The translations under genes and the position numbers were made by a program. 24,730 nucleotides of DNA from a virus (Duplodnaviria; Caudoviricetes), in the IMG/VR virus record IMGVR_UViG_3300030116_006519, positions 1-24,730 of that record. One strand, 5' to 3'. Below, one piece after another: positions 1 through 23,127 of this stretch. The notes below the pieces were generated by a model that was not told where the DNA came from, searched no databases, and saw only the letters and a program-made list of their open reading frames with translations. The number at the start of each line of letters is the position of its first letter. Position 1 is the stretch's first letter.

Positions 1-67
1 CCTGTTGCTCAGAAGATACTCTGATATAACCGTAAATATTATTAATCTGCTTTTTGGGTTGTATCAT
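1..67 (-). CDS. Serine recombinase (resolvase/invertase family), N-terminal fragment running off the window edge
   Basis: Manual translation from ATG at 67 gives MIQPKKQINNIYGYIRVSSEQQ..., containing the YGYxRVS catalytic-serine motif; not in the ORF track. Confidence 0.8.
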   Translation of the reverse strand, partial: MIQPKKQINNIYGYIRVSSEQQ

Positions 68-194
68 CTTTTTTTGCCTTAGCTTTCTCGATGTATTTTA
101 AAACATCCTCTGGGTGAAGCATACCGAACCGCCAAGCACGGAAGTCCCTCGGGGTCATAATCTCTTTCATTTCGTCTGTAAAAGTTTTTTTCAT
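42..194 (-). CDS. Small hypothetical protein (50 aa)
   Basis: Manual translation MKKTFTDEMKEIMTPRDFRAWRFGMLHPEDVLKYIEKAKAKKDDTTQKAD*; AGGAG SD upstream; packs between neighbouring genes. Confidence 0.7.
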   Translation of the reverse strand: MKKTFTDEMKEIMTPRDFRAWRFGMLHPEDVLKYIEKAKAKKDDTTQKAD

Positions 195-204
195 ACTGTC
201 TCCT

Positions 205-624
205 TTAAAAACTTGGGTCTTCCCATCTCTTTCTGAATCCTACATAAATACTTCCCGAATCACTTTTGTTCAATCTGCCTGTTTCAGGATTTAGGTACGA
301 CTGTCTGTATGACCTGTAATCAGCATCATCATGGCACGGATAGATAATCTCATCTTTTTCTTGAAAGTAGAACTCTCTACCCTCAGGGTCATCTGTGTAG
401 ATGTGAGATTGATTTTTGTAGTAATCGTAATTCTCAGTAGGTGTTGCTTTGCACTCCCTAAGAGTTACTTTTCTTTTGCCGACCTCACCTTCAACCTTGG
501 TTATGGTTAGTGGGTACTGGTCGGTATAAGGTGAATAAGTTGCACCTTGTCCAACGAATATTTCAGGCTTGGGTTTAGGTCTTTCCCTTTTTACCTGTAA
601 AATTTTATCTACTATATTTTCCAT
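205..624 (-). CDS. Phage hypothetical protein (139 aa)
   Basis: GGAGG SD; operon packing; VGQGAT...GFRKRWEDPSF pattern resembles a recurrent phage hypothetical family. Confidence 0.8.
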   Translation of the reverse strand: MENIVDKILQVKRERPKPKPEIFVGQGATYSPYTDQYPLTITKVEGEVGKRKVTLRECKATPTENYDYYKNQSHIYTDDPEGREFYFQEKDEIIYPCHDDADYRSYRQSYLNPETGRLNKSDSGSIYVGFRKRWEDPSF

Positions 625-633
625 CTTTCCTCC

Positions 634-822
634 TTATTTTGAGTTTCTTGCTTCAGACAAAGCCTTTTTTGCTCTTATCTTTAGAGCCTCGAGTCTAGGA
701 GTATCTCCTACACTTTTTATATGTTTAGAAATCATCATTTGAGGCTTGTTAGAAATTTGAGTCAATATCCAAACAAGCATTTCTAAATCTGTAGTATTTA
801 GTTTATTTAATTCGTTATTCAT
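634..822 (-). CDS. Hypothetical protein (62 aa)
   Basis: GGAGG SD; first gene after the leftward promoter. Confidence 0.7.
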   Translation of the reverse strand: MNNELNKLNTTDLEMLVWILTQISNKPQMMISKHIKSVGDTPRLEALKIRAKKALSEARNSK

Positions 823-860
823 TTTTTACCTCCAAAGTAAACATAATTGTTTACATGTTT

Positions 861-889
861 ATACTAAACTAAAATATTACAGTTTGCAA
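861..889 (-). promoter_or_regulatory. Leftward sigma70-like promoter
   Basis: TTGCAA (889-884), 17 nt spacer, TAGTAT (866-861). Confidence 0.6.
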
Positions 890-913
890 ACTTTTATTAT
901 CTTTAATATTTAT

Positions 914-942
914 TTGCAATCTATAGCATTTTATTGTATATT
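914..942 (+). promoter_or_regulatory. Rightward sigma70-like promoter
   Basis: TTGCAA (914-919), 17 nt spacer, TATATT (937-942); AT-rich upstream. Confidence 0.65.
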
Positions 943-986
943 ATAGATATGAGATATTTAAACAATAATAAAAAGGAGGTAGTTTG

Positions 987-1409
987 ATGGATAGAAGTTT
1001 TGTTATTGATAAAAAAGAGTTTAACCAAAAGTTTGGGGGGTTGGAGCCTTTTGGTAAGTTTCTCGAAGATGCTATTGCTTTTAATTGCGATATGTATGGA
1101 GGCGGAAATGTTAGGTGTGAGGTCAGCGATTGGGGAGCTGAGTTTTTCTTTACAGGCTCCCCTTTCGATGATGATGCAACAGATGAGCTTATTTTAAGAG
1201 CTACTTTTGTTGACGACAAAATAGAGTTTACCTTTCCAAGAAGATGGGTTGGAGCTTTGACCAGAGAGAGCACTGGTATTTTTCTCAACTTCCTAGAAGA
1301 GCAACTAGAGGAAAACATAAACAATGACCCTCACGACTGGGTTCTTGTATATCACGAACTTCCCTTAGACCATGACGTATATGACGTTAACCTTGACCTT
1401 GGAAAATAA
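987..1409 (+). CDS. Acidic hypothetical protein
   Basis: AAGGAGG SD 7 nt before ATG 987; Asp/Glu-rich. Confidence 0.8.
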   Translation: MDRSFVIDKKEFNQKFGGLEPFGKFLEDAIAFNCDMYGGGNVRCEVSDWGAEFFFTGSPFDDDATDELILRATFVDDKIEFTFPRRWVGALTRESTGIFLNFLEEQLEENINNDPHDWVLVYHELPLDHDVYDVNLDLGK

Positions 1410-1421
1410 GGAGGCGGATAG

Positions 1422-1913
1422 ATGATCAAAAATATATTTGTTGACATGGACGGAGTCTTAGCGGACTTCGTCACAGGGGTTGAAGGTCCAGACTTTCTGG
1501 ACGGACCTTTACTGAGTGAACAGGATTATGATGATAACAAAGAATCATTCATCAACAAAAGATTATTTAAAAACCTGCCACCTATGGAGGGTATGGCTGA
1601 CTTGATAGATTTCATCAAGCAGACTAAGTTACCTTGGGAGATTCTATCTGCGGCAGGATTAACAGAGAACAGAAACTTAGCAGTGTATGACAAAACTGCT
1701 TGGGTAAAAGATCACGTTTGTCCTTATGTGGCTGTGACATGCACCACTAAGGGCAAACACAAGGCAATCTATGCTAAGCCAGATAGAGTTCTAATCGATG
1801 ACAGATTAGAAAATATTGAGGCTTGGGAGGATGCAGGTGGTATCGGCATCTTACACAAAAGTGTAGCCGAGACTATCGAAACTTTAACTACTTTAATTAA
1901 GGAGGAAAAATGA
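1422..1913 (+). CDS. HAD-superfamily 5'(3')-deoxyribonucleotidase (NT5C-like)
   Basis: Motif I FVDMDGVLADF, LSA motif II, K...LIDD motifs III/IV, W...GGIGILH tail. Confidence 0.85.
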   Translation: MIKNIFVDMDGVLADFVTGVEGPDFLDGPLLSEQDYDDNKESFINKRLFKNLPPMEGMADLIDFIKQTKLPWEILSAAGLTENRNLAVYDKTAWVKDHVCPYVAVTCTTKGKHKAIYAKPDRVLIDDRLENIEAWEDAGGIGILHKSVAETIETLTTLIKEEK

Positions 1914-2488
1914 GTTTGACTAGAGAATTTTACATCCCAAAGGATGCTAAAGAAATAAAATGTACTAAAACAGATGCCGTTGCATATATCAACGATTATG
2001 CAGACGGAACCAAATACACCGCTATGGTGTTTGCTGGTAAGAGGTCTAAATATGACAAATATTATGGTTTCAAAACATCTGAGAAAAGAGATCAGTATGT
2101 CCAAGAATATTTCAAAGACATAGCGGCAAGTTACGAAAAAACAAAGCAATATGCTGAAAAGATAAAAGCTATGATTGCTGAGAGGGAGAAGAACTATGAA
2201 GTCGGTGGTATTTTATACAGTGCTTGGGGATATGACCAAACCAATATTGATTATTACCAAATAATTGATAGAACAGACAAAATGGTCACCATTTGTAAAA
2301 TTGGTAAAAAATATTTAGAAACAGAGTATTCTAGCGAAGAAAGAGTGGTGCCTGATAAAGATAACTTCGTTGGGGAGCCTATGAAAAAGAAAATTGGTGC
2401 TTATGGAATCTCCTTAAACAGTTATGCAAATGCGGACCTTTGGGACGGTCAACCGAAGTATCAAACAGCTTACGGCTGGGGTCACTAA
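1910..2488 (+). CDS. Phage hypothetical protein (192 aa)
   Basis: AAGGAGG SD, ATGA overlap; GGILYSAWGYDQTNIDYYQI segment resembles a recurrent phage/plasmid hypothetical family. Confidence 0.8.
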   Translation: MSLTREFYIPKDAKEIKCTKTDAVAYINDYADGTKYTAMVFAGKRSKYDKYYGFKTSEKRDQYVQEYFKDIAASYEKTKQYAEKIKAMIAEREKNYEVGGILYSAWGYDQTNIDYYQIIDRTDKMVTICKIGKKYLETEYSSEERVVPDKDNFVGEPMKKKIGAYGISLNSYANADLWDGQPKYQTAYGWGH

Positions 2489-2713
2489 ATGACCGACATC
2501 AAAAACAAAGTGATCAAGAAATTTCTTGAGCAACTGGAAAAAGAGATAGAGCAGAGGGAAGACTCTCTGCCCTATGTCTTGAATCCACAGGAGCGAGAAA
2601 AAGTTTTGCAAGAAATTGAAGAGCTGGGTTCGATGGCAGATCAAGCCAACGAAAGAGCAGAAGAAATTCTAGCTGAGTACGAACAAAGACAAGCAAAAAG
2701 CAAAGATAAATAA
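2489..2713 (+). CDS. Coiled-coil hypothetical protein (74 aa)
   Basis: Directly abuts the upstream stop; E/K/Q-rich helical composition. Confidence 0.7.
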   Translation: MTDIKNKVIKKFLEQLEKEIEQREDSLPYVLNPQEREKVLQEIEELGSMADQANERAEEILAEYEQRQAKSKDK

Positions 2714-2717
2714 AAAT

Positions 2718-2746
2718 TTGCAAATGATAACAATTTTTTGTAAAAT
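2718..2746 (+). promoter_or_regulatory. sigma70-like promoter driving the structured-RNA array
   Basis: TTGCAA (2718-2723), 17 nt spacer, TAAAAT (2741-2746); predicted start near 2752-2753, followed by a small 5' hairpin ACCC-ATAA-GGGT (2753-2764). Confidence 0.7.
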
Positions 2747-2765
2747 TAAAGAACCCATAAGGGTA

Positions 2766-2905
2766 AGTTCGGGTAACTCCTTTGAGGGCATGTGGTTGCC
2801 CAAAAATCTTGCCCCTTTTTCTTAAAATTTGGGGGGGTGGGAGAAAAGTGCAAGACCTGTTACCTGAACTGTTTCATTCATTTAGGCTTGCACAACCACA
2901 CTGAA
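2766..2905 (+). ncRNA. Structured RNA unit A (multi-pseudoknot, unknown class)
   Basis: P1 2766-2777/2859-2870; P2 GGGCA-TGTGGT-TGCCC 2786-2801; extra G.U-rich hairpin 2807-2842; P3 2848-2858/2884-2893; tail ACCACA 2895-2900 complementary to the P2 loop. Confidence 0.7.
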
Positions 2906-2929
2906 CAATTATGGAGGAACTTAATGGAC

Positions 2930-3043
2930 TCTGGCTAGAACGAGTAGATTCAGGGGTTGTGGTGCTCCTGCCTCCTAGAAAGCGTTATCGGTTTTTCTAG
3001 TCAGAATTATGGATTTTTGACTGATAACGCAGACCACACTGAA
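2930..3043 (+). ncRNA. Structured RNA unit B (same fold)
   Basis: P1 2930-2940/2995-3005; P2 CAGGGGT-TGTGGT-GCTCCTG 2951-2970; P3 2982-2992/3020-3030; tail ACCACACTGAA 3033-3043. Confidence 0.75.
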
Positions 3044-3067
3044 CAATTATGGAGGGACTAAAAGAAC

Positions 3068-3186
3068 TCTGGCTAGCATCTTCTAACAGGGGCTCGTGGT
3101 GCTCCTGAGACAAAGCGTTATTGGTTTTCTAGTCAGAATAGAAGATTAATGGCTTCATTTATGCTGATAACGCACACCACACTGAA
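3068..3186 (+). ncRNA. Structured RNA unit C (same fold)
   Basis: P1 3068-3076/3129-3137; P2 CAGGGGC-TCGTGGT-GCTCCTG 3087-3107; P3 3115-3125/3163-3173; tail ACCACACTGAA 3176-3186. Confidence 0.75.
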
Positions 3187-3188
3187 TT

Positions 3189-3320
3189 ATGAAAAATAGC
3201 AATAAAAAACTAAAAGCAATAGAATGGGGTTTGATTTTGACTATCTTAGCAGGTTTAGTTTTATACAAATACCTAGTTTGGGGTTGCGTAATTATATGTG
3301 GAGATTGGTACGATGACTGA
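3189..3320 (+). CDS. Small membrane protein (43 aa)
   Basis: Manual translation MKNSNKKLKAIEWGLILTILAGLVLYKYLVWGCVIICGDWYDD*; basic N-terminus plus hydrophobic helix; stop overlaps the next ATG (ATGACTGA); no SD. Confidence 0.65.
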   Translation: MKNSNKKLKAIEWGLILTILAGLVLYKYLVWGCVIICGDWYDD

Positions 3321-3771
3321 TAAAAATAGATTCACCAACTGGTTAGCTATGGAAAGCGATGTAAAGGTGACAGAAACACACGCCCAAAAGTTAGGTAAAG
3401 AATGGAGCAGGGCCTTTCAAAGCAAGATAGAACCCATACTGGGCAAAGTAAGCGTCTCTAAAACAGTCGAGACTAAAGCTCTGGTTATAGAGGACGAAAT
3501 AGCAAATTTATTACAAGAAGCATTGCAACACGAAAAAGATTTTATGAAAGAACTAGATCGCCACGAACAAGATGCTATCGAGTACAACGGGGTTGGCAAA
3601 TCAGATCGTGACATAATGCACCACAACACAGCACTTATGTTTGCCTCTCTGTATCTTTGTTATGCAATCATTGCACACCTAAAACACCGAAAAGAACAAC
3701 TTGATTTGATGACTAAAGCTGGCAAGTTGTTTGGCAAAAAAGGCAAGGATGATAAACCGAAGAATGGCTAA
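3313..3771 (+). CDS. Hypothetical protein
   Basis: ORF track 3298..3771; ATG 3313 preferred (GGAG upstream, coupled to the previous stop). Confidence 0.75.
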   Translation: MTDKNRFTNWLAMESDVKVTETHAQKLGKEWSRAFQSKIEPILGKVSVSKTVETKALVIEDEIANLLQEALQHEKDFMKELDRHEQDAIEYNGVGKSDRDIMHHNTALMFASLYLCYAIIAHLKHRKEQLDLMTKAGKLFGKKGKDDKPKNG

Positions 3772-4096
3772 TTATAAGGACCAACAGAAAAAAGTAACAC
3801 TAGTATTAAATGGCAAAAAAATGTCTTTTGTAGCAAGCAAAGAAGAAATTGTAAGAGCGTTTTCCAAAGAAATGACTAAGATATTTTGTGATCGCTACTT
3901 TACTGAAAAAAGTTGTGTTTTATGTAAGAAAAAATTTATTGACAAATCCAAATCACAAAACGCTAAGTTTTGTCAAGAAAAGTGTCTAACAAAAGATTAC
4001 AGAAATAGATACATAGAGACATACAATAAAAAAAACGGCACAAGTTTTACTAGCTATCAATTAATCAGGAGATTGAATGAAAAAAAGAGTGTCTGA
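3764..4096 (+). CDS. Basic Zn-finger protein (CxxC...FCxxxC)
   Basis: CVLCKKKF...KFCQEKC...YRNRY; ATG 3764 overlaps the upstream stop. Confidence 0.7.
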   Translation: MANYKDQQKKVTLVLNGKKMSFVASKEEIVRAFSKEMTKIFCDRYFTEKSCVLCKKKFIDKSKSQNAKFCQEKCLTKDYRNRYIETYNKKNGTSFTSYQLIRRLNEKKSV

Positions 4097-4382
4097 AGAA
4101 ACATACTTGCAAGAATTAATTAAGTTTAGAAAAGTGTTTTGTGATTCTTTTGAAAAGCAGTATGACATAATCAAAACAAGAACATGTAAAAATTGTAAAA
4201 AAAAATTCTTTAAAAGACCCTTAACGCCTGAAAAAAAATTTTGTAGTGATGCGTGTAAATCTACAAATTATAGAAAAAATTTTGTGAAAGCATATAACAA
4301 AAAAAATGGTACAAAACGAAAGTATAAAGACTTTCAAAAAATAAGAGAGGAGTGTAAAGAAAATGAAAAGAATAGTGTCTGA
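4077..4382 (+). CDS. Basic Zn-finger protein, paralog of the upstream gene
   Basis: CKNCKKKF...KFCSDAC...YRKNF...YNKKNGT, pattern shared with 3764-4096. Confidence 0.75.
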   Translation: MKKRVSEETYLQELIKFRKVFCDSFEKQYDIIKTRTCKNCKKKFFKRPLTPEKKFCSDACKSTNYRKNFVKAYNKKNGTKRKYKDFQKIREECKENEKNSV

Positions 4383-4599
4383 ACCTACACAAATAAAACT
4401 CTACGGCAGACCTTTTAAGAAAGTTACAGGCACCAACTTTTACACTTTGTTCGGTAAAGACAGATGGCAGTTCATAGACGGCCATCCTGTCGAGATGTAC
4501 AAAGATGAGAAGTTACTAGAGGCCCAGCAAAAAAATTGGACTGAACTGGATTTTACTCCTCAGTTTGTGTCATTTCTTGGTCGTAAACAAGCGAAGTAG
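4363..4599 (+). CDS. Hypothetical protein (78 aa)
   Basis: GAGGAG upstream; overlaps the previous gene; last gene of the rightward unit. Confidence 0.7.
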   Translation: MKRIVSEPTQIKLYGRPFKKVTGTNFYTLFGKDRWQFIDGHPVEMYKDEKLLEAQQKNWTELDFTPQFVSFLGRKQAK

Positions 4600-4628: not shown

Positions 4629-6968
4629 TTATTCTTCGGCCCCTTTGGGAAATTTAATATTTTTTTTAGCAACATCGACTGTGGTGTCTGCACTAGCTAT
4701 ATTTTTTGCATCAAAAACTAAAGTTTCATCACCTACTTTTATTCCATCATAACCAAACTTTTTCGCTTTTTCAGTAAATTCAGCGGCTCCTTTGCCACCG
4801 ACTCTTATATAGTCAGACAGGCTGTATAAAATATTTTCCGTGTCAGGGAATAACTTTCTAAGTTCAGAATCGAATCTAGTACCTTCTATGATTTGATTTT
4901 TAAGACTTTTTACTGCTCTCGCCTTATCTGCCAAACCGAACCCTGAATATATGCGATTCAGGGTATTCTCTCCCCTCGTAGGATGTTTGACATAAGCGGC
5001 AATACCTTCATTGCCTCTATTATCGCTTGATTGAATAAATTTAACATTTTTGTCTACATAATCATCTATCTTTTTAATAGTTTTCAAACCTTTTTTCGTA
5101 GGTTCGTCCAACATATCTATTTTGTCTAACTCTTTAGCCCAAAATTTAAAATATTTTTTATCCAAAAGTTCAAAATCAGAGTTTCTCTTGTTTTGAGACA
5201 AATCTAAAAATTTGCCTCTAGTGAAATATTTTTTAACGATTGGGCCATAGTATCTAGCCTCTCCGGGTTCCTTGGCGAAATAAAATCCTCTACCAAAAAA
5301 TCCTTCATCTCTATTTCCAATAAATTTTTCGTCAAATTTGTCAAAATCTGCAAAGGTGCCATGATATACAGGTTCGTCAATATTGAAACCTTGTGCTTTC
5401 AAATCAGTAATTTTGTCTGAGCTTTTCACTTTTTTTGGTGTTTCAACTATTGCTTGTACTCCCTCAATACCTTTTTTTGTTGCAGTTTTGGCGATTGGTC
5501 CAGCCACAGGAATTAAATCAAGCAAACTTAAACCTTGACCTAACCTGTCTCTTTCGGCTATAGCGATGTCCGTAGATAGTCCGGGCAACAGCGAGGCTAT
5601 GCCTCGTGCCAGTTGTCTAGCTTGTTCTTGTTCGGGTGTAAAACCTTGAGTTGTCAAATAATCTATGGCTCTTTGATATAAAGTTGGATTGAATATTCTT
5701 TGTTCTTCAAGTGGTGACAGTGGCTCTATGGTGCCTAAGTCAGGACTAACTTCTCCGCTTTCTTGGAATATGTCAATGTCATCCAGATTTAGGTTGCCCA
5801 ACATCTCGAGGTAATTTAATTTCTGTTTTTTATCTTCTACCTCTTTTTCACCATTTTCGACAGCACCACCTAACTGATATTTCTTAGTGATTTCTATTCG
5901 TTTTGGGTCGAATATCACAAATTCTTTGGGGACATCGGGACTTAAAATGCCGCGTGCACCGAAGTCGTCATACATATCTCGACCTGTTATGCCATAAAAA
6001 TTGCCCTTGATGCCAGCTTTCGATAGTTTTTGAGCTTTAGCACGGGGACTGCCCGGTATTCGGACTTGTTCTGCTCCTTTCAGGTGAGGACTTAGATAGT
6101 TATATGGAAGTAACAAGCTCGCATCGTCTAGCCCTTCCTCGCTAAGATAATATTCAGAAAGGCTGAAATCTGTCCTGAGCTCCTCTAACTTATCTCTGTT
6201 AGCGGAGCTGTTAGGAATTTTTTTATTTTCTAGGTCCGACTTAAATTTTTCATACTTCTTCTTATTTTTCTCCACCAGCTTTGCTTGTTCTTGCAACCTG
6301 CGAGTTTCTGCTTTTTTCACGTCTTGCAAAATGCCAGAATCTTTGAGTTTTTTTAGAACAGCTGGTTTTTGTTGGTCGAATCGAACACTGTTTTTTAACA
6401 TTTCATCTTCAGAAATCTTAACGTCTACCTCATACAATTTGCCTTTCCTTCTTGTCCCCTCCGTTATTTGTGTTTTATACGCACTTGCCAGCTGTGGGTC
6501 TGTGGTAAAGTAAACACCAACACCCTCATTTTGCAAACCAAAACCACCACCGCCTTGTTTGGCTCCTGTCATGTCTTCGGGTTTTGGAAACCTAAATTCG
6601 TCAAAGTTTTTCGCTGAAGCATGAAATCCTTTGATTGTATCTGCTCCAGACTTAACGGCTTGCTTGGCGACTGGACCAGCTACGGGTACTACGTCTAAAA
6701 AACTCAGACCTTCTCCCAAAATATCTTTTTCAGCTTTGGCAATATCTGTACTCACACCCGGTATCAGTGAAGCAAGACCTCTTGCAAATGTTCTAGCTCG
6801 CTCCTGTTCTGGCGTGAAACCTTGGGTGGTTAAATAATCTATAGCTCTTTGGTAAAGTGTCGGATTGAATATTCTTTGTTGTTCTAAAGGAGAGAGTGGC
6901 TCTATGGTACCTAAATCAGGACTAACTTCTCCGCCTTCTTGGAATATGTCGATGTCATCGAGTTTCAT
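4629..6968 (-). CDS. Tandem two-module protein, each module a conserved ~105-aa leader plus an ADP-ribosyltransferase-like (ART-PolyVal-type) domain
   Basis: Near-identical LDDIDIFQE(G/S)GEVSPDLGTIEPLSPLE...IPVAGP leaders at aa 3 and aa 395; ART-like H-Y-E patterns FHAS/GVYFT/EFVIFD and YHGT/GFYFA/ETLVFD. Confidence 0.75.
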   Translation of the reverse strand: MKLDDIDIFQEGGEVSPDLGTIEPLSPLEQQRIFNPTLYQRAIDYLTTQGFTPEQERARTFARGLASLIPGVSTDIAKAEKDILGEGLSFLDVVPVAGPVAKQAVKSGADTIKGFHASAKNFDEFRFPKPEDMTGAKQGGGGFGLQNEGVGVYFTTDPQLASAYKTQITEGTRRKGKLYEVDVKISEDEMLKNSVRFDQQKPAVLKKLKDSGILQDVKKAETRRLQEQAKLVEKNKKKYEKFKSDLENKKIPNSSANRDKLEELRTDFSLSEYYLSEEGLDDASLLLPYNYLSPHLKGAEQVRIPGSPRAKAQKLSKAGIKGNFYGITGRDMYDDFGARGILSPDVPKEFVIFDPKRIEITKKYQLGGAVENGEKEVEDKKQKLNYLEMLGNLNLDDIDIFQESGEVSPDLGTIEPLSPLEEQRIFNPTLYQRAIDYLTTQGFTPEQEQARQLARGIASLLPGLSTDIAIAERDRLGQGLSLLDLIPVAGPIAKTATKKGIEGVQAIVETPKKVKSSDKITDLKAQGFNIDEPVYHGTFADFDKFDEKFIGNRDEGFFGRGFYFAKEPGEARYYGPIVKKYFTRGKFLDLSQNKRNSDFELLDKKYFKFWAKELDKIDMLDEPTKKGLKTIKKIDDYVDKNVKFIQSSDNRGNEGIAAYVKHPTRGENTLNRIYSGFGLADKARAVKSLKNQIIEGTRFDSELRKLFPDTENILYSLSDYIRVGGKGAAEFTEKAKKFGYDGIKVGDETLVFDAKNIASADTTVDVAKKNIKFPKGAEE

Positions 6969-7532: not shown

Positions 7533-7876
7533 TGTGCCATTTTGTATTATTCTGTAAAAAATTACAATCCATAGGAATCATAATTTTTGGTGCTTCAGTG
7601 TGATGAACTTAGTTGCGTGTGCACTGCAAACGCAAAACAAGTATTAGGGGGGTGTGGTCAAAAAATAAACAACAAGTGTCAGAAAAAAAGGGCCCCTAGG
7701 GACTCCAAAGGCGTTACAGTGACCGTTGTACATACAAGGATAATTTTGACAGTGCAATGACAAGGCTTTCGTAGTCGTCTGTATCTCTTTGTTTATGCGT
7801 GTTCTGGATAATCGCTTATATTTTTTGATTATTTTGTGTGGTGTCCCAGAAAAAAAGTCAGATGCAAGTTTTTTTA

Positions 7877-21096: not shown

Positions 21097-23127
21097 TTAT
21101 TGTGGGTTTAAAAAGTTGCCAAATGCTCCGAAAGCACCGAGTCCTGTTGACAATGCGGCTTGTAACGGACTTGGTGGTGGAGTGAATGTAGTTCTTGTTT
21201 GGAATTGTCCTGCTGGAGCCATACTGATGAATGGTGCTAGTGCTTGGAACTGTGCTAACGGTGCTTGTTGAGCTTGTAGCAGATTCCTTCTTTGAGCATC
21301 AAGCATAGCTTGTTGTTGAGCTTGTTGCTGTTGCCCGAAGGCTCCTAGTTGACCGATGCCAGCCTGAGCTTGTTGTTGTGCTTGAGCTCCAAGGCCTTGT
21401 AATGCTGAGCCTAACCCAAATCTGGCTTGTTGTCGTTGTTGTGCTATCTGTTGCTCAAGGTTACCTAATCTTCCGAAAGCACTTGCTAAGGCTTGTTGGC
21501 CACCAAATCTTTGACTGCCAATACTACCCAAAGATTGTCCAAGGGCTTGTTGTGAGCCTAATCTTTGTCCTGCCAGACCCGCTAATGTAGAGCCAAGTTG
21601 TTGTTGTGCTCCTAATCTTTGTCCTGCCAAGCCAGCTAATCCTTGAGAGGCTAATCTTTCTGCTTGTCGTTGTCTTGCGAACTCACCGAGTCCTGTTTGC
21701 TGTGCCTCGGAGAATCCTCTTGCCCTGATGCCACCTAGTGCCTCTGCCAGTCCCCGTCCTAGGGCTCTTTGTCTTTCTTCTGCTCCTAACCTAGCTCTTG
21801 AACCGAAAGCCGATTCACCACCTCTTGCTATATCTTGAGCTCTTGCCCCAATGTCGCTCAGTGCCCCTTGCTCCATAACATCTCGGACCGTTTGTTGCAC
21901 GACTTGTTCTTCAAAAGGATTAAAAAATCTACTGGTCATACTAGGGTCGTAACCACCGAGAGTGCCTCTTAGCAGACCCTCAGATTCACCCAAGCGACCA
22001 CCAAACTGTCCTGTAGCACCCAGCTGTAAGGCACCTATCCCACCGAGACTACGACCAAACTGATCGGTTGCTCCTCTAAGTAATCGTTCTTGTTGTCCAA
22101 GACCTGACAATAAACCGCCTAAACCTTCTTGTGTTGCTCCTAAACCTTGTTCTTCTCTTTCTCTTGCTCGCTGTAAACCCTCTTCCATGGCACTGACACC
22201 CCCACGAAAAGCAGACTCAGCATCTCGTAGAAAAGGTCGCTCTATTCCAAAGGCTTGTCGTGTTAACTCTTGTGCTATCAGTTGATCGGGAGAAAACCCA
22301 GCGACTTGTTCAGGTATAACAATAGGCTTGCCTTCGGCATCAAAGAAAGTTCGCTCAGCGGCACGCATGGCCCCCGGTATGAAACCTCCTTTGCCGTCAA
22401 GACCGAATAGTAGTTGTTTTGTTAGGGGGTCTAAACCAGTTTCAACTCTATCTATTTGGGAAGCAAAAGGTTGTGGTTGATTCATCCCAGAAGGTGCTCC
22501 GGGTGGCGGTGGTGTGTCTTGTACTTGCACATCGGGAGGAAGATTCACAGTTGGTTGTGGTTCTACTGGTCCTTGTGGTAAGCCCCCCTCTATTTGGTCT
22601 AATGTTATGGGGTTAATTTTGCCTTCTGGTGGAGGGACTGGTCTACCGACAGCAATTTGATCTGCTGGGCCAATAATCTGTCCATCTGGGCCAAAGATTT
22701 CGGTTGGTCTAACACCCTGTCTAAATGGGTCCACGGGTGCTGGTCGTCCTTGGGGTGGGCGTGCTATGAAAGCTCTAGCATCTTGCCCGAAACCTTTATC
22801 ACCCGGCTTTAGATTGATTTGTTGTTGTAGTCTTTGCCTAAACTCTTCTGGTGTTTGTCTTTGTTTGAAGGTTTTACTTCCTGCTCTTATATTTCGAGTT
22901 GGAATATACTGCATCAGCTCATCATCCGACATGTCTATTAATTCTTGTAAGCTGGGTAGATTCGGTGGTGGTGGTGTTAGCCCTAAACCGGGTACAAGTT
23001 GTGTTGGAGCTAAACCACCTTGTGTTCTAAGCCCTGAACCGGGTATAAGTTGTAGAGCATTTCTTACAGGCATAGCTCTTTGAATTAAGCCACCTTGTTG
23101 CATTTTAGGAACTAAATTTCTGTTCAT
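21097..23127 (-). CDS. Gly/Gln/Ala-rich DNA pilot-like ejection protein (676 aa)
   Basis: Pro-rich N-terminal region, FFNPFEEQVV and AFGSRA motifs, 18-aa amphipathic repeats, hydrophobic C-terminus. Confidence 0.6.
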   Translation of the reverse strand: MNRNLVPKMQQGGLIQRAMPVRNALQLIPGSGLRTQGGLAPTQLVPGLGLTPPPPNLPSLQELIDMSDDELMQYIPTRNIRAGSKTFKQRQTPEEFRQRLQQQINLKPGDKGFGQDARAFIARPPQGRPAPVDPFRQGVRPTEIFGPDGQIIGPADQIAVGRPVPPPEGKINPITLDQIEGGLPQGPVEPQPTVNLPPDVQVQDTPPPPGAPSGMNQPQPFASQIDRVETGLDPLTKQLLFGLDGKGGFIPGAMRAAERTFFDAEGKPIVIPEQVAGFSPDQLIAQELTRQAFGIERPFLRDAESAFRGGVSAMEEGLQRAREREEQGLGATQEGLGGLLSGLGQQERLLRGATDQFGRSLGGIGALQLGATGQFGGRLGESEGLLRGTLGGYDPSMTSRFFNPFEEQVVQQTVRDVMEQGALSDIGARAQDIARGGESAFGSRARLGAEERQRALGRGLAEALGGIRARGFSEAQQTGLGEFARQRQAERLASQGLAGLAGQRLGAQQQLGSTLAGLAGQRLGSQQALGQSLGSIGSQRFGGQQALASAFGRLGNLEQQIAQQRQQARFGLGSALQGLGAQAQQQAQAGIGQLGAFGQQQQAQQQAMLDAQRRNLLQAQQAPLAQFQALAPFISMAPAGQFQTRTTFTPPPSPLQAALSTGLGAFGAFGNFLNPQ

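Follow-up and report, generated by a model that had tools for sequence, protein, structure and literature searches.

Early in the window, as we call the whole 24,730-nt stretch of phage DNA analyzed here, lies a tandem array of three units (A, B, and C), which are copies of a real, selected, and uncatalogued phage RNA fold carried in an array of variable copy number, and for which the function is only inferred. The predicted fold is a double pseudoknot read from the + strand, and it would represent a new kind of phage RNA element. A selected and repeated + strand phage RNA had already been proposed in a first-pass annotation of this DNA, and the compensated pairs, a descriptor null, and the negative Rfam searches described below bear this proposal out.

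The source record is a fragment of 24.7 kb, about 46% complete, and the stretch is present in marine and seawater metagenome runs. Its gene products include a primase-helicase, a terminase small subunit, an exonuclease VIII-like protein, and two 2OG-Fe(II) oxygenases. The array is located in the variable early region, between a gene with a 74-aa product (2489-2713) and a gene encoding a hydrophobic peptide of 43 aa (Table 1).

From 5' to 3', each unit consists of the first strand of P1 (P1a), a linker of 8-10 nt, a P2 hairpin with a GUGGU loop, a linker ending in AAA, the first strand of P3 (P3a), and the second strand of P1 (P1b), followed by a loop of 13-25 nt, P3b, 1-2 nt, and an ACCACA able to pair with the P2 loop as P4. 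P3a and P1b together make up an uninterrupted strand of 22-24 nt, the loop closed by P3 spans 23-37 nt, and the units are 109-140 nt long. The duplex energies were −11.5 to −16.4 kcal/mol for P1, −12.3 to −16.1 for P3, −6.2 to −10.4 for P2, and about −6.8 for P4. Conservation of unpaired positions is sparse, with the AAA before P3 and the UGA after P4 being retained.

The topology shared by the three units agrees with the first-pass annotation, all the stems that it named being found in place on the + strand, but P1 of unit C has 9 bp rather than 11 and unit A contains an additional hairpin between P2 and P3. The stems of A had been described as entirely different from those of B and C, which was an overstatement, as 9 of the 25 P1-P3 pairs that align between A and B are the same. 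The G.U pair said to occupy an equivalent position in P1 of every unit is in fact one column apart between A and B/C, with A-U taking its place in the single-copy relatives; the two wobble changes from B to C in P3 are present as described. The 11-mer tail occurs three times in the window, always in the array, and is invariant there as claimed, but ACCACA is followed by CUGAG or UUGAG in relatives instead of CUGAA.

Table 1. Features of the array, of its surroundings, and of cassette repeats in related records. Positions are those of the window unless a record is named.
Feature	Position	Strand	Remark
Sigma-70-type promoter candidate, TTGCAA-17-TAAAAT	2718-2746	+	9/12 consensus match
Unit A	2766-2900	+	orthologue of the single copy in relatives
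Unit A, P1	2766-2777/2859-2870	+	12 bp
Unit A, P2	2786-2790/2797-2801	+	5 bp
Unit A, P3	2848-2858/2884-2893	+	10 bp, one bulged A
Unit A, P4	2791-2796/2895-2900	+	6 bp
Optional hairpin between P2 and P3, A-type units only	2807-2842	+	predicted fold; differs between populations
Tail of A and linker to B, first copy of 44-nt direct repeat	2895-2938	+	repeat search, 91%
Unit B	2930-3038	+	P1-P4; absent from the two-copy form of run X8
Unit B, P1	2930-2940/2995-3005	+	11 bp
Unit B, P2	2951-2957/2964-2970	+	7 bp
Unit B, P3	2982-2993/3019-3030	+	12 bp
Unit B, P4	2958-2963/3033-3038	+	6 bp
Tail of B and linker to C, second copy of 44-nt direct repeat	3033-3076	+	repeat search
Unit C	3068-3181	+	25-nt loop, 14 nt shorter in run X14
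Unit C, P1	3068-3076/3129-3137	+	9 bp
Unit C, P2	3087-3093/3101-3107	+	7 bp
Unit C, P3	3115-3125/3163-3173	+	11 bp
Unit C, P4	within unit, 3068-3181	+	5 bp and a C-A mismatch
43-aa hydrophobic peptide gene	3189-3320	+	starts 7 nt after P4 of the last unit; 3' end overlaps start of next gene
Cassette repeat sites	L485:3291 and 3432; L487:6473 and 6614; L500:5095 and 5236
Cassette repeat sites	L485:3910 and 4094; L483:9667 and 10001

A four-helix descriptor containing no sequence terms gave scores of 83, 78, and 77 for the three units, and none of 2000 dinucleotide shuffles of the region reached 77 (maximum 76), a null that is lenient since the descriptor was written after the units had been seen. 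It replaced an initial null requiring two unbroken 9-bp helices, which caught one of the three units and 8 of 300 shuffles. The next best site in the window scored 68, and the minus strand of the region gave no descriptor match. On the + strand, 11 of the 84 pairs of P1-P3 are G.U, and all eight units folded were more stable than their own reverse complements. A minus-strand RNA was rejected on the silence of the descriptor and the weaker folds, and the + strand assignment made at first reading was supported.

In agreement with the earlier view that no known family applies, searches with Rfam 15 returned no match at the gathering threshold, and no known ribozyme, either in the window or in seven related loci; four weak matches (E values of 1.8-6.2) fell far under the threshold. 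ARAGORN reported no tRNA or tmRNA gene. No description of the motif was found in the literature, where the supplements of a survey of 10,000 candidate viral RNAs are only partly searchable and three of their six text files contained no match; the motif may thus be among those candidates (PMC10690425).

As judged from sequence searches, the family is found in one lineage and in two deep sequence types (A and B/C). Two records (L001 and L281) are near-identical to the window over the array and do not constitute independent support. A single A-type unit is present in five records (L282, L376/L483, L453/L500, L485, and L487) of a close lineage, the primase being 93% identical in G001. The copy number is 1, 2, or 3, the two-copy form without B being seen in a contig from run X8 that joins the tail of A to unit C (2905 to 3064). 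A contig from run X10 covers 2831-3300 with five differences. Loose ends in run X8, at 3085-3138 of the window, also gave a glimpse of another unit resembling C, in which the first linker and the loop differ and A-U replaces the P1 wobble.

The pairs were registered by coordinates, and not through a covariance model, because MAFFT misaligned B and C against A; R-scape would have no power with two deep sequence types. Between A and L282, 24 pairs are identical, three show one-sided and four two-sided changes, and none is broken (7/7 changed pairs still paired), and between L282 and B the corresponding numbers are 17, 4, 11, and 0 (15/15 still paired), counts of unbroken pairs that are favored by placing the helix ends where pairing stops. 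B and C share 29 identical pairs, with three one-sided changes, no two-sided change, and one broken pair at the end of P4; their loops differ throughout, and only three core pairs differ, all still paired. Unit C is without two terminal P1 pairs, and A has a bulge in P3. With only two deep sequence types, both from one lineage, these estimates of conservation are crude.

Within populations, both stem changes in unit B in run X10 yield G.U pairs. Among the changes listed for runs X9 and X14, with 14 substitutions and two indels beyond the list, those in unit A fall outside the four core helices and cluster in the optional hairpin. Other changes in run X14 affect linkers and loops, together with one insertion at the loop end of P2. 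The linkers adjoining P4 are also variable (A, AG, AC, and others in runs X8 and X10).

Further members were sought in several ways. A tandem-tail pattern gave three loci in IMG/VR, of which one was real (near-identical to the window) and two were unrelated duplications; a B-type pattern gave 119 loci from 59 of 64 parts, with a near-identical contig as the sole pass; and a B-type P3 pattern gave 11 loci, one real and 10 unrelated. The 82 loci obtained from GTDB had a best helix score of 53, versus 60-68 for true units, and blastn against cultured phages returned short chance matches only. The metagenome scan used a 192-aa gene as the query and covered 13 of the 64 parts. A set of 74 loci reached through a 377-aa gene, checked by blastn only, was set aside, this gene being widely shared and its loci contributing no further member, and 49 sister records, searched with a pattern blind to the A-type spacing, added none. 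Finally, the descriptor, run over 40 stretches (24 sister records; 1.2 Mb, both strands), found no unit; the one site with a score of 79 turned out to be a long inverted repeat (L634, minus strand, about 4400-4475) that separates two divergent genes and is likely an operator or a divergent promoter pair.

Insertion at short direct repeats, the route taken by the gene cassettes of this lineage, likely also built up the array, to judge from the sequences at the junctions. These cassettes are flanked by direct repeats of 8-24 nt at start codons, which copy the ribosome-binding site or the first codons of the next gene, and the early region is reshuffled in this way. A 24-nt repeat is present in L485, L487, and L500 and single in L282 and L483, and repeats of 21 and 8 nt are present in L485 and L483, respectively. 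The repeated tail flanks units B and C in a cassette-like manner, and the units are mosaic between populations. In the first copy of the 44-nt repeat, a Shine-Dalgarno-like GGAGG accompanies an ORF of four codons ending in P1a of B. The minus strand of the window at 1-67, continued in L007, encodes the beginning of a serine recombinase of the resolvase family, whose counterpart directly after the peptide gene in single-copy relatives is 92-93% identical; the location on the opposite strand here indicates that the early region was rearranged.

The array had been described as promoter-driven, which does not hold up as a general description. The promoter candidate lies upstream of it, and although such matches are not enriched in the window (15 versus 11.8 ± 3.3 in shuffles), so that its score by itself is at chance, the candidate is supported by its retention in relatives: the −35 hexamer and the 17-nt spacer recur at the corresponding position in L282, L483, L485, L487, and L500, with TACAAT as the −10. 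In the window, the array begins about 13 nt past the predicted transcription start, but in 5/5 distant records the single copy is found about 450-600 nt behind the promoter, inside an operon and after three or four small genes.

The distance of 7 nt between P4 and the AUG of the peptide gene is the same in the window and in 5/5 single-copy records. The peptide, of 43-46 aa, is of the membrane type (19-residue hydropathy of 2.1), without a PHROG, Pfam, PADLOC, or Atlas match; its homologues are 67-74% identical between lineages, and its codons show 8-12 synonymous versus 11-14 replacement changes, mostly conservative. Although the gene that follows it may be a resolvase-family recombinase, a 152-aa gene, or one of two different inserted genes, and the genes upstream of the unit also differ between records, the unit remains next to the peptide gene. 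Of the 22 resolvase loci, five contained the unit, all with the peptide gene, 15 more distant loci showed neither, and two were too short to tell. A link of the unit to the resolvase was discarded, since sister phages with the resolvase lack the unit; the association with the peptide gene may be plain linkage within one lineage. On the + strand, no terminator-like site, sought as a G+C-rich hairpin with a U run, was found at 2714-3300. The RNA run X20 provided two 151-nt contigs, both at 3209-3483 and neither over the units, which is evidence neither way.

The helices follow the order ABCBDADC, which has genus 2 and is palindromic, reading the same backwards. In other words, two hairpins are present, with the 5' strand paired to the loop of the second (P1) and the 3' strand paired to the loop of the first (P4), an arrangement that, in the modeled fold, clamps both RNA ends. 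This order is not among the 14 pseudoknot patterns tabulated for 1939 solved or curated RNAs in a 2012 set (PMC3390330).

We tentatively propose, with a probability of about one in three, that the unit is a cis-acting mechanical roadblock, which would shield the mRNA of the downstream membrane peptide from 5'-end-dependent decay. P1 and P3 would stack into a rod of about 20-23 bp standing in the way of a nuclease arriving from the 5' end, with RNase E scanning and RNase J as candidates; the rod would stop the nuclease, the downstream message would live longer, and stable 5' ends or small RNAs would accumulate at the unit borders. Extra copies, having arrived by recombination at the short repeated tail, would add redundancy. 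The conservation of pairing and helix length while sequence identity drifts is as expected of a mechanical element, and since the unit travels with the peptide gene, has its ends clamped, and keeps its fold in tandem copies, a roadblock is the best fit to our data. Some observations do not suit it. The P4 sequence and the AAA and UGA are conserved around one junction, as would befit an active or protein-binding site, and a mechanical block needs none. In the window, the array begins so close to the predicted start that a 5' barrier would have little upstream RNA to guard against. The size of the P3 loop, which is not the 15-16-nt ring of exonuclease-resistant RNAs (xrRNAs), also counts against a roadblock.

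Precedents exist for such a function. In xrRNAs, a ring is latched by a second pseudoknot, the elements are often in tandem, and they also block RNase J1 (PMC8374639). As in the xrRNAs of flaviviruses and plant viruses, a second pseudoknot would form a latch, and tandem, drifting copies precede a reading frame; P1a pairs inside the P3 loop, so that the 5' strand of the unit may likewise be held within a closed loop. Known xrRNAs have a ring of 15-16 nt, with a three-way-junction core in the flaviviral classes (PMC8374639), whereas the P3 loop of the unit is larger and no such junction is predicted; in addition, its helices approach one turn, it belongs to a DNA phage, and its resistance to nucleases is putative. 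In E. coli, RNase E scanning is blocked by pseudoknots with 8-15 coaxial pairs, to an extent proportional to their length, and these likewise lie in the 5' region upstream of a gene (PMC9943677). They are mostly engineered inserts, whereas the unit is natural, with about 20-23 pairs in P1 and P3 and a second pseudoknot. By these analogies, the unit would most plausibly work like an xrRNA or an RNase E obstacle, yet it departs from xrRNAs in ring size and in its lack of a predicted three-way junction.

The junction conservation raises the possibility, an unlikely one, of a new class of self-cleaving ribozyme that would cut the polycistronic transcript just upstream of the peptide gene, the array then releasing monomers of 138 and 143 nt. 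The conserved bases gather at the P2/P3/P4 junction, and the unit is a genus-2 double pseudoknot of ribozyme size. The hammerhead is a three-way junction with a core of CUGANGA and GAAA, and the units do not fit it, with CUGAAC, CUGAAU, CUGAGU, or UUGAGU after P4 and a P4b that is a single strand rather than a stem-loop. The closest in form are the HDV-like (delta and theta) ribozymes, likewise genus-2 double pseudoknots of about 100 nt found in phage intergenic DNA (PMC10879173, PMC3390330), and an intergenic site in a phage operon is usual for small ribozymes (PMC6765202, PMC4604425). The HDV-like order is, nonetheless, ABCDCADB, and that of the unit equals neither this order nor its reverse; of the HDV-like features described in these sources, the 2-bp P1.1, the J4/2 strand for the catalytic cytosine, and the tRNA neighbour are missing. 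The pistol ribozyme has three stems and one pseudoknot between the P1 loop and the P2-P3 junction, and is of genus 1; it also has 10 highly conserved positions (PMC4604425), against the few conserved unpaired bases of the unit. The variability of the linkers beside P4 and the absence of a known ribozyme in the window and the seven related loci further weigh against cleavage. The first-pass annotation had found no match to the hammerhead, HDV, and pistol layouts, and helix order, genus, and the Rfam negatives agree with it.

The constant distance to the AUG could alternatively reflect a translation element, an equally improbable reading, that would dock S1 or the 30S subunit and position the AUG of the membrane peptide, a ribosome stopping in P1a remodeling the fold and so coupling both genes. 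P4 ends 7 nt before the AUG in 6/6 cases, where a Shine-Dalgarno would lie, and the peptide gene lacks a Shine-Dalgarno match in the window and the single-copy records, versus 10/12 genes at 42-4599 with a match of 4 nt or more. Genes without it are nevertheless common here, 13 of the 31 window genes having a match of 3 nt or less. The gene upstream of the unit stops inside P1a in 4/5 single-copy records, but no ORF ends in P1a of window unit A, of unit C, or of L500, and in the window, units A and B keep their fold even though the only ORFs behind them are short and unconserved. The small toxin genes timP and tisB need pseudoknots for translation and, as here, the pseudoknot is upstream of a small hydrophobic peptide gene, there in the 5' UTR of a type I toxin gene (PMC11228461); these mRNAs combine a sequestered Shine-Dalgarno with an antisense sRNA, whereas here no Shine-Dalgarno and no antisense RNA were identified and the pseudoknot ends 7 nt before the AUG. 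IRES pseudoknots were dispensable or inhibitory in E. coli (PMC9458429). Several simpler signals were considered and rejected. A short ORF in P1a is not conserved, as neither A, C, L500, nor the X8 form has it, and a helix that would mask the AUG can form in the L282 type but not in C. A frameshift signal was dropped because no slippery heptamer was seen by eye ahead of P1a, and a tRNA-like 3' end was dropped because the spacing from P3 to CCA varies.

It is also conceivable, if quite doubtful, that the last copy alone works and that the upstream copies are passengers of cassette recombination bound to decay, a reading that can coexist with some of the others. This lineage does insert cassettes with 8-24-nt direct repeats at start codons, and a form without B exists. 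Yet the internal unit B has the strongest helices and its population variants keep pairing, and the three core pairs that distinguish B from C are all paired.

A rather more doubtful role is that of small RNAs released as trans decoys for a host RNA-binding or defence protein, the two-type array raising their dose and range. The array directly follows the promoter in the window, its copy number is 1-3, the P4 sequence is kept while the other helices drift, and the units are mosaic between populations. Type III antitoxins such as ToxI and CptI likewise combine a promoter, tandem pseudoknot repeats, and a gene, but these repeats are near-identical single H-type pseudoknots of 36-45 nt in the solved examples, followed by an RNase toxin (PMC4627078); here, double pseudoknots of 109-140 nt precede a 43-aa membrane peptide without a family match. 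No + strand terminator-like site follows the array, no effector, toxin, or defence gene was recognized near it, and the single-copy unit is tightly flanked by coding sequences. A guide scaffold is unlikely, the variable loops being mostly 8-14 nt and no effector gene being recognized nearby.

In organization, the nearest arrays are those of the ncRNAs of UG27 reverse transcriptases, also in phages, with units of 135-167 nt, a kept structure despite divergent sequence, a pseudoknot, and gain and loss of units (bioRxiv 10.64898/2026.09.22.753630). The UG27 units have a long central hairpin bracketed by AUC-N7-UANAG and UUYA motifs, which by eye is absent from the present units, and these arrays need the reverse transcriptase and two accessory genes. 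A match to PF00078 (reverse transcriptase) was found in 0/5 records, which are 24-50% complete, and there was no reverse transcriptase among the genes flanking the array.

The lengths of P1 and P3 (12/10, 11/12, 9/11, and 10/12 bp; overall 9-12 for P1 and 10-12 for P3) raise a further question. Two helices of about 11 bp or more can make a pseudoknot a true knot (PMC5381007); unit B reaches this length, and the other units are borderline. A synthetic knot was built on two 12-bp duplexes, the same two-duplex layout as in the unit, and one natural RNA knot is on record (PMC13725558, PMC11218946). A coarse A-form model yielded an unknotted chain with the shortest loop routes and a trefoil if P1 is crossed by the loop the other way round, and it permits both threaded and unthreaded routes for P1a inside the P3 loop. 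The knotted route would need about 9-12 nt of loop and the unknotted one about 5-9 nt, versus 13-25 nt in the units and 10-11 nt in two population variants. A loop across P1 of 10-14 nt would suffice for the knotted route and exceed what the unknotted one requires. We consider it very unlikely that the unit is a naturally selected RNA knot, a P1/P3 trefoil latched by P4 that would serve as a nuclease-proof or catalytic module stacked in arrays, because threading is hard for a nascent RNA with tethered ends.

The fold, supported by compensatory change, matches no Rfam family and is known from one phage lineage. Should it prove to block nucleases, phages would have evolved a counterpart of the viral xrRNAs, which would also serve as a compact stabilizer of mRNA in bacteria; should it cleave, the fold would define a new ribozyme class. 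With P1 and P3 near one turn, it is also a concrete candidate for addressing whether natural RNAs form true knots.

Other structured elements were observed in sister phages. A leader hairpin with compensatory changes lies just before the ribosome-binding site of a conserved gene (L202:5472, L204:1346, and L210:6115, with similar cases in L215-L217), with no Rfam match in L202, L210, or L216. Two different conserved leaders lie 500-650 nt after the 192-aa gene, one in L203, L213, and L285 and the other in L207-L209 and L214, with no Rfam match in L203 or L207. In the window itself, the region 7533-7876, between an oxygenase gene and the terminase small-subunit gene, contains no genes but G and C runs and hairpins; on its minus strand, at 7594-7604, is a copy of the 11-nt tail with one mismatch, for which no upstream partner loop was seen and the descriptor gave no match. 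Three 48-nt repeats with 54-nt spacing occur at 21485-21640, within a 676-aa gene. At 4629-6968, on the minus strand, the window encodes a protein of 779 aa, which gave two ART-PolyVal ADP-ribosyltransferase-like matches and whose gene contains a 300-nt internal duplication; different versions of this protein are found in relatives.
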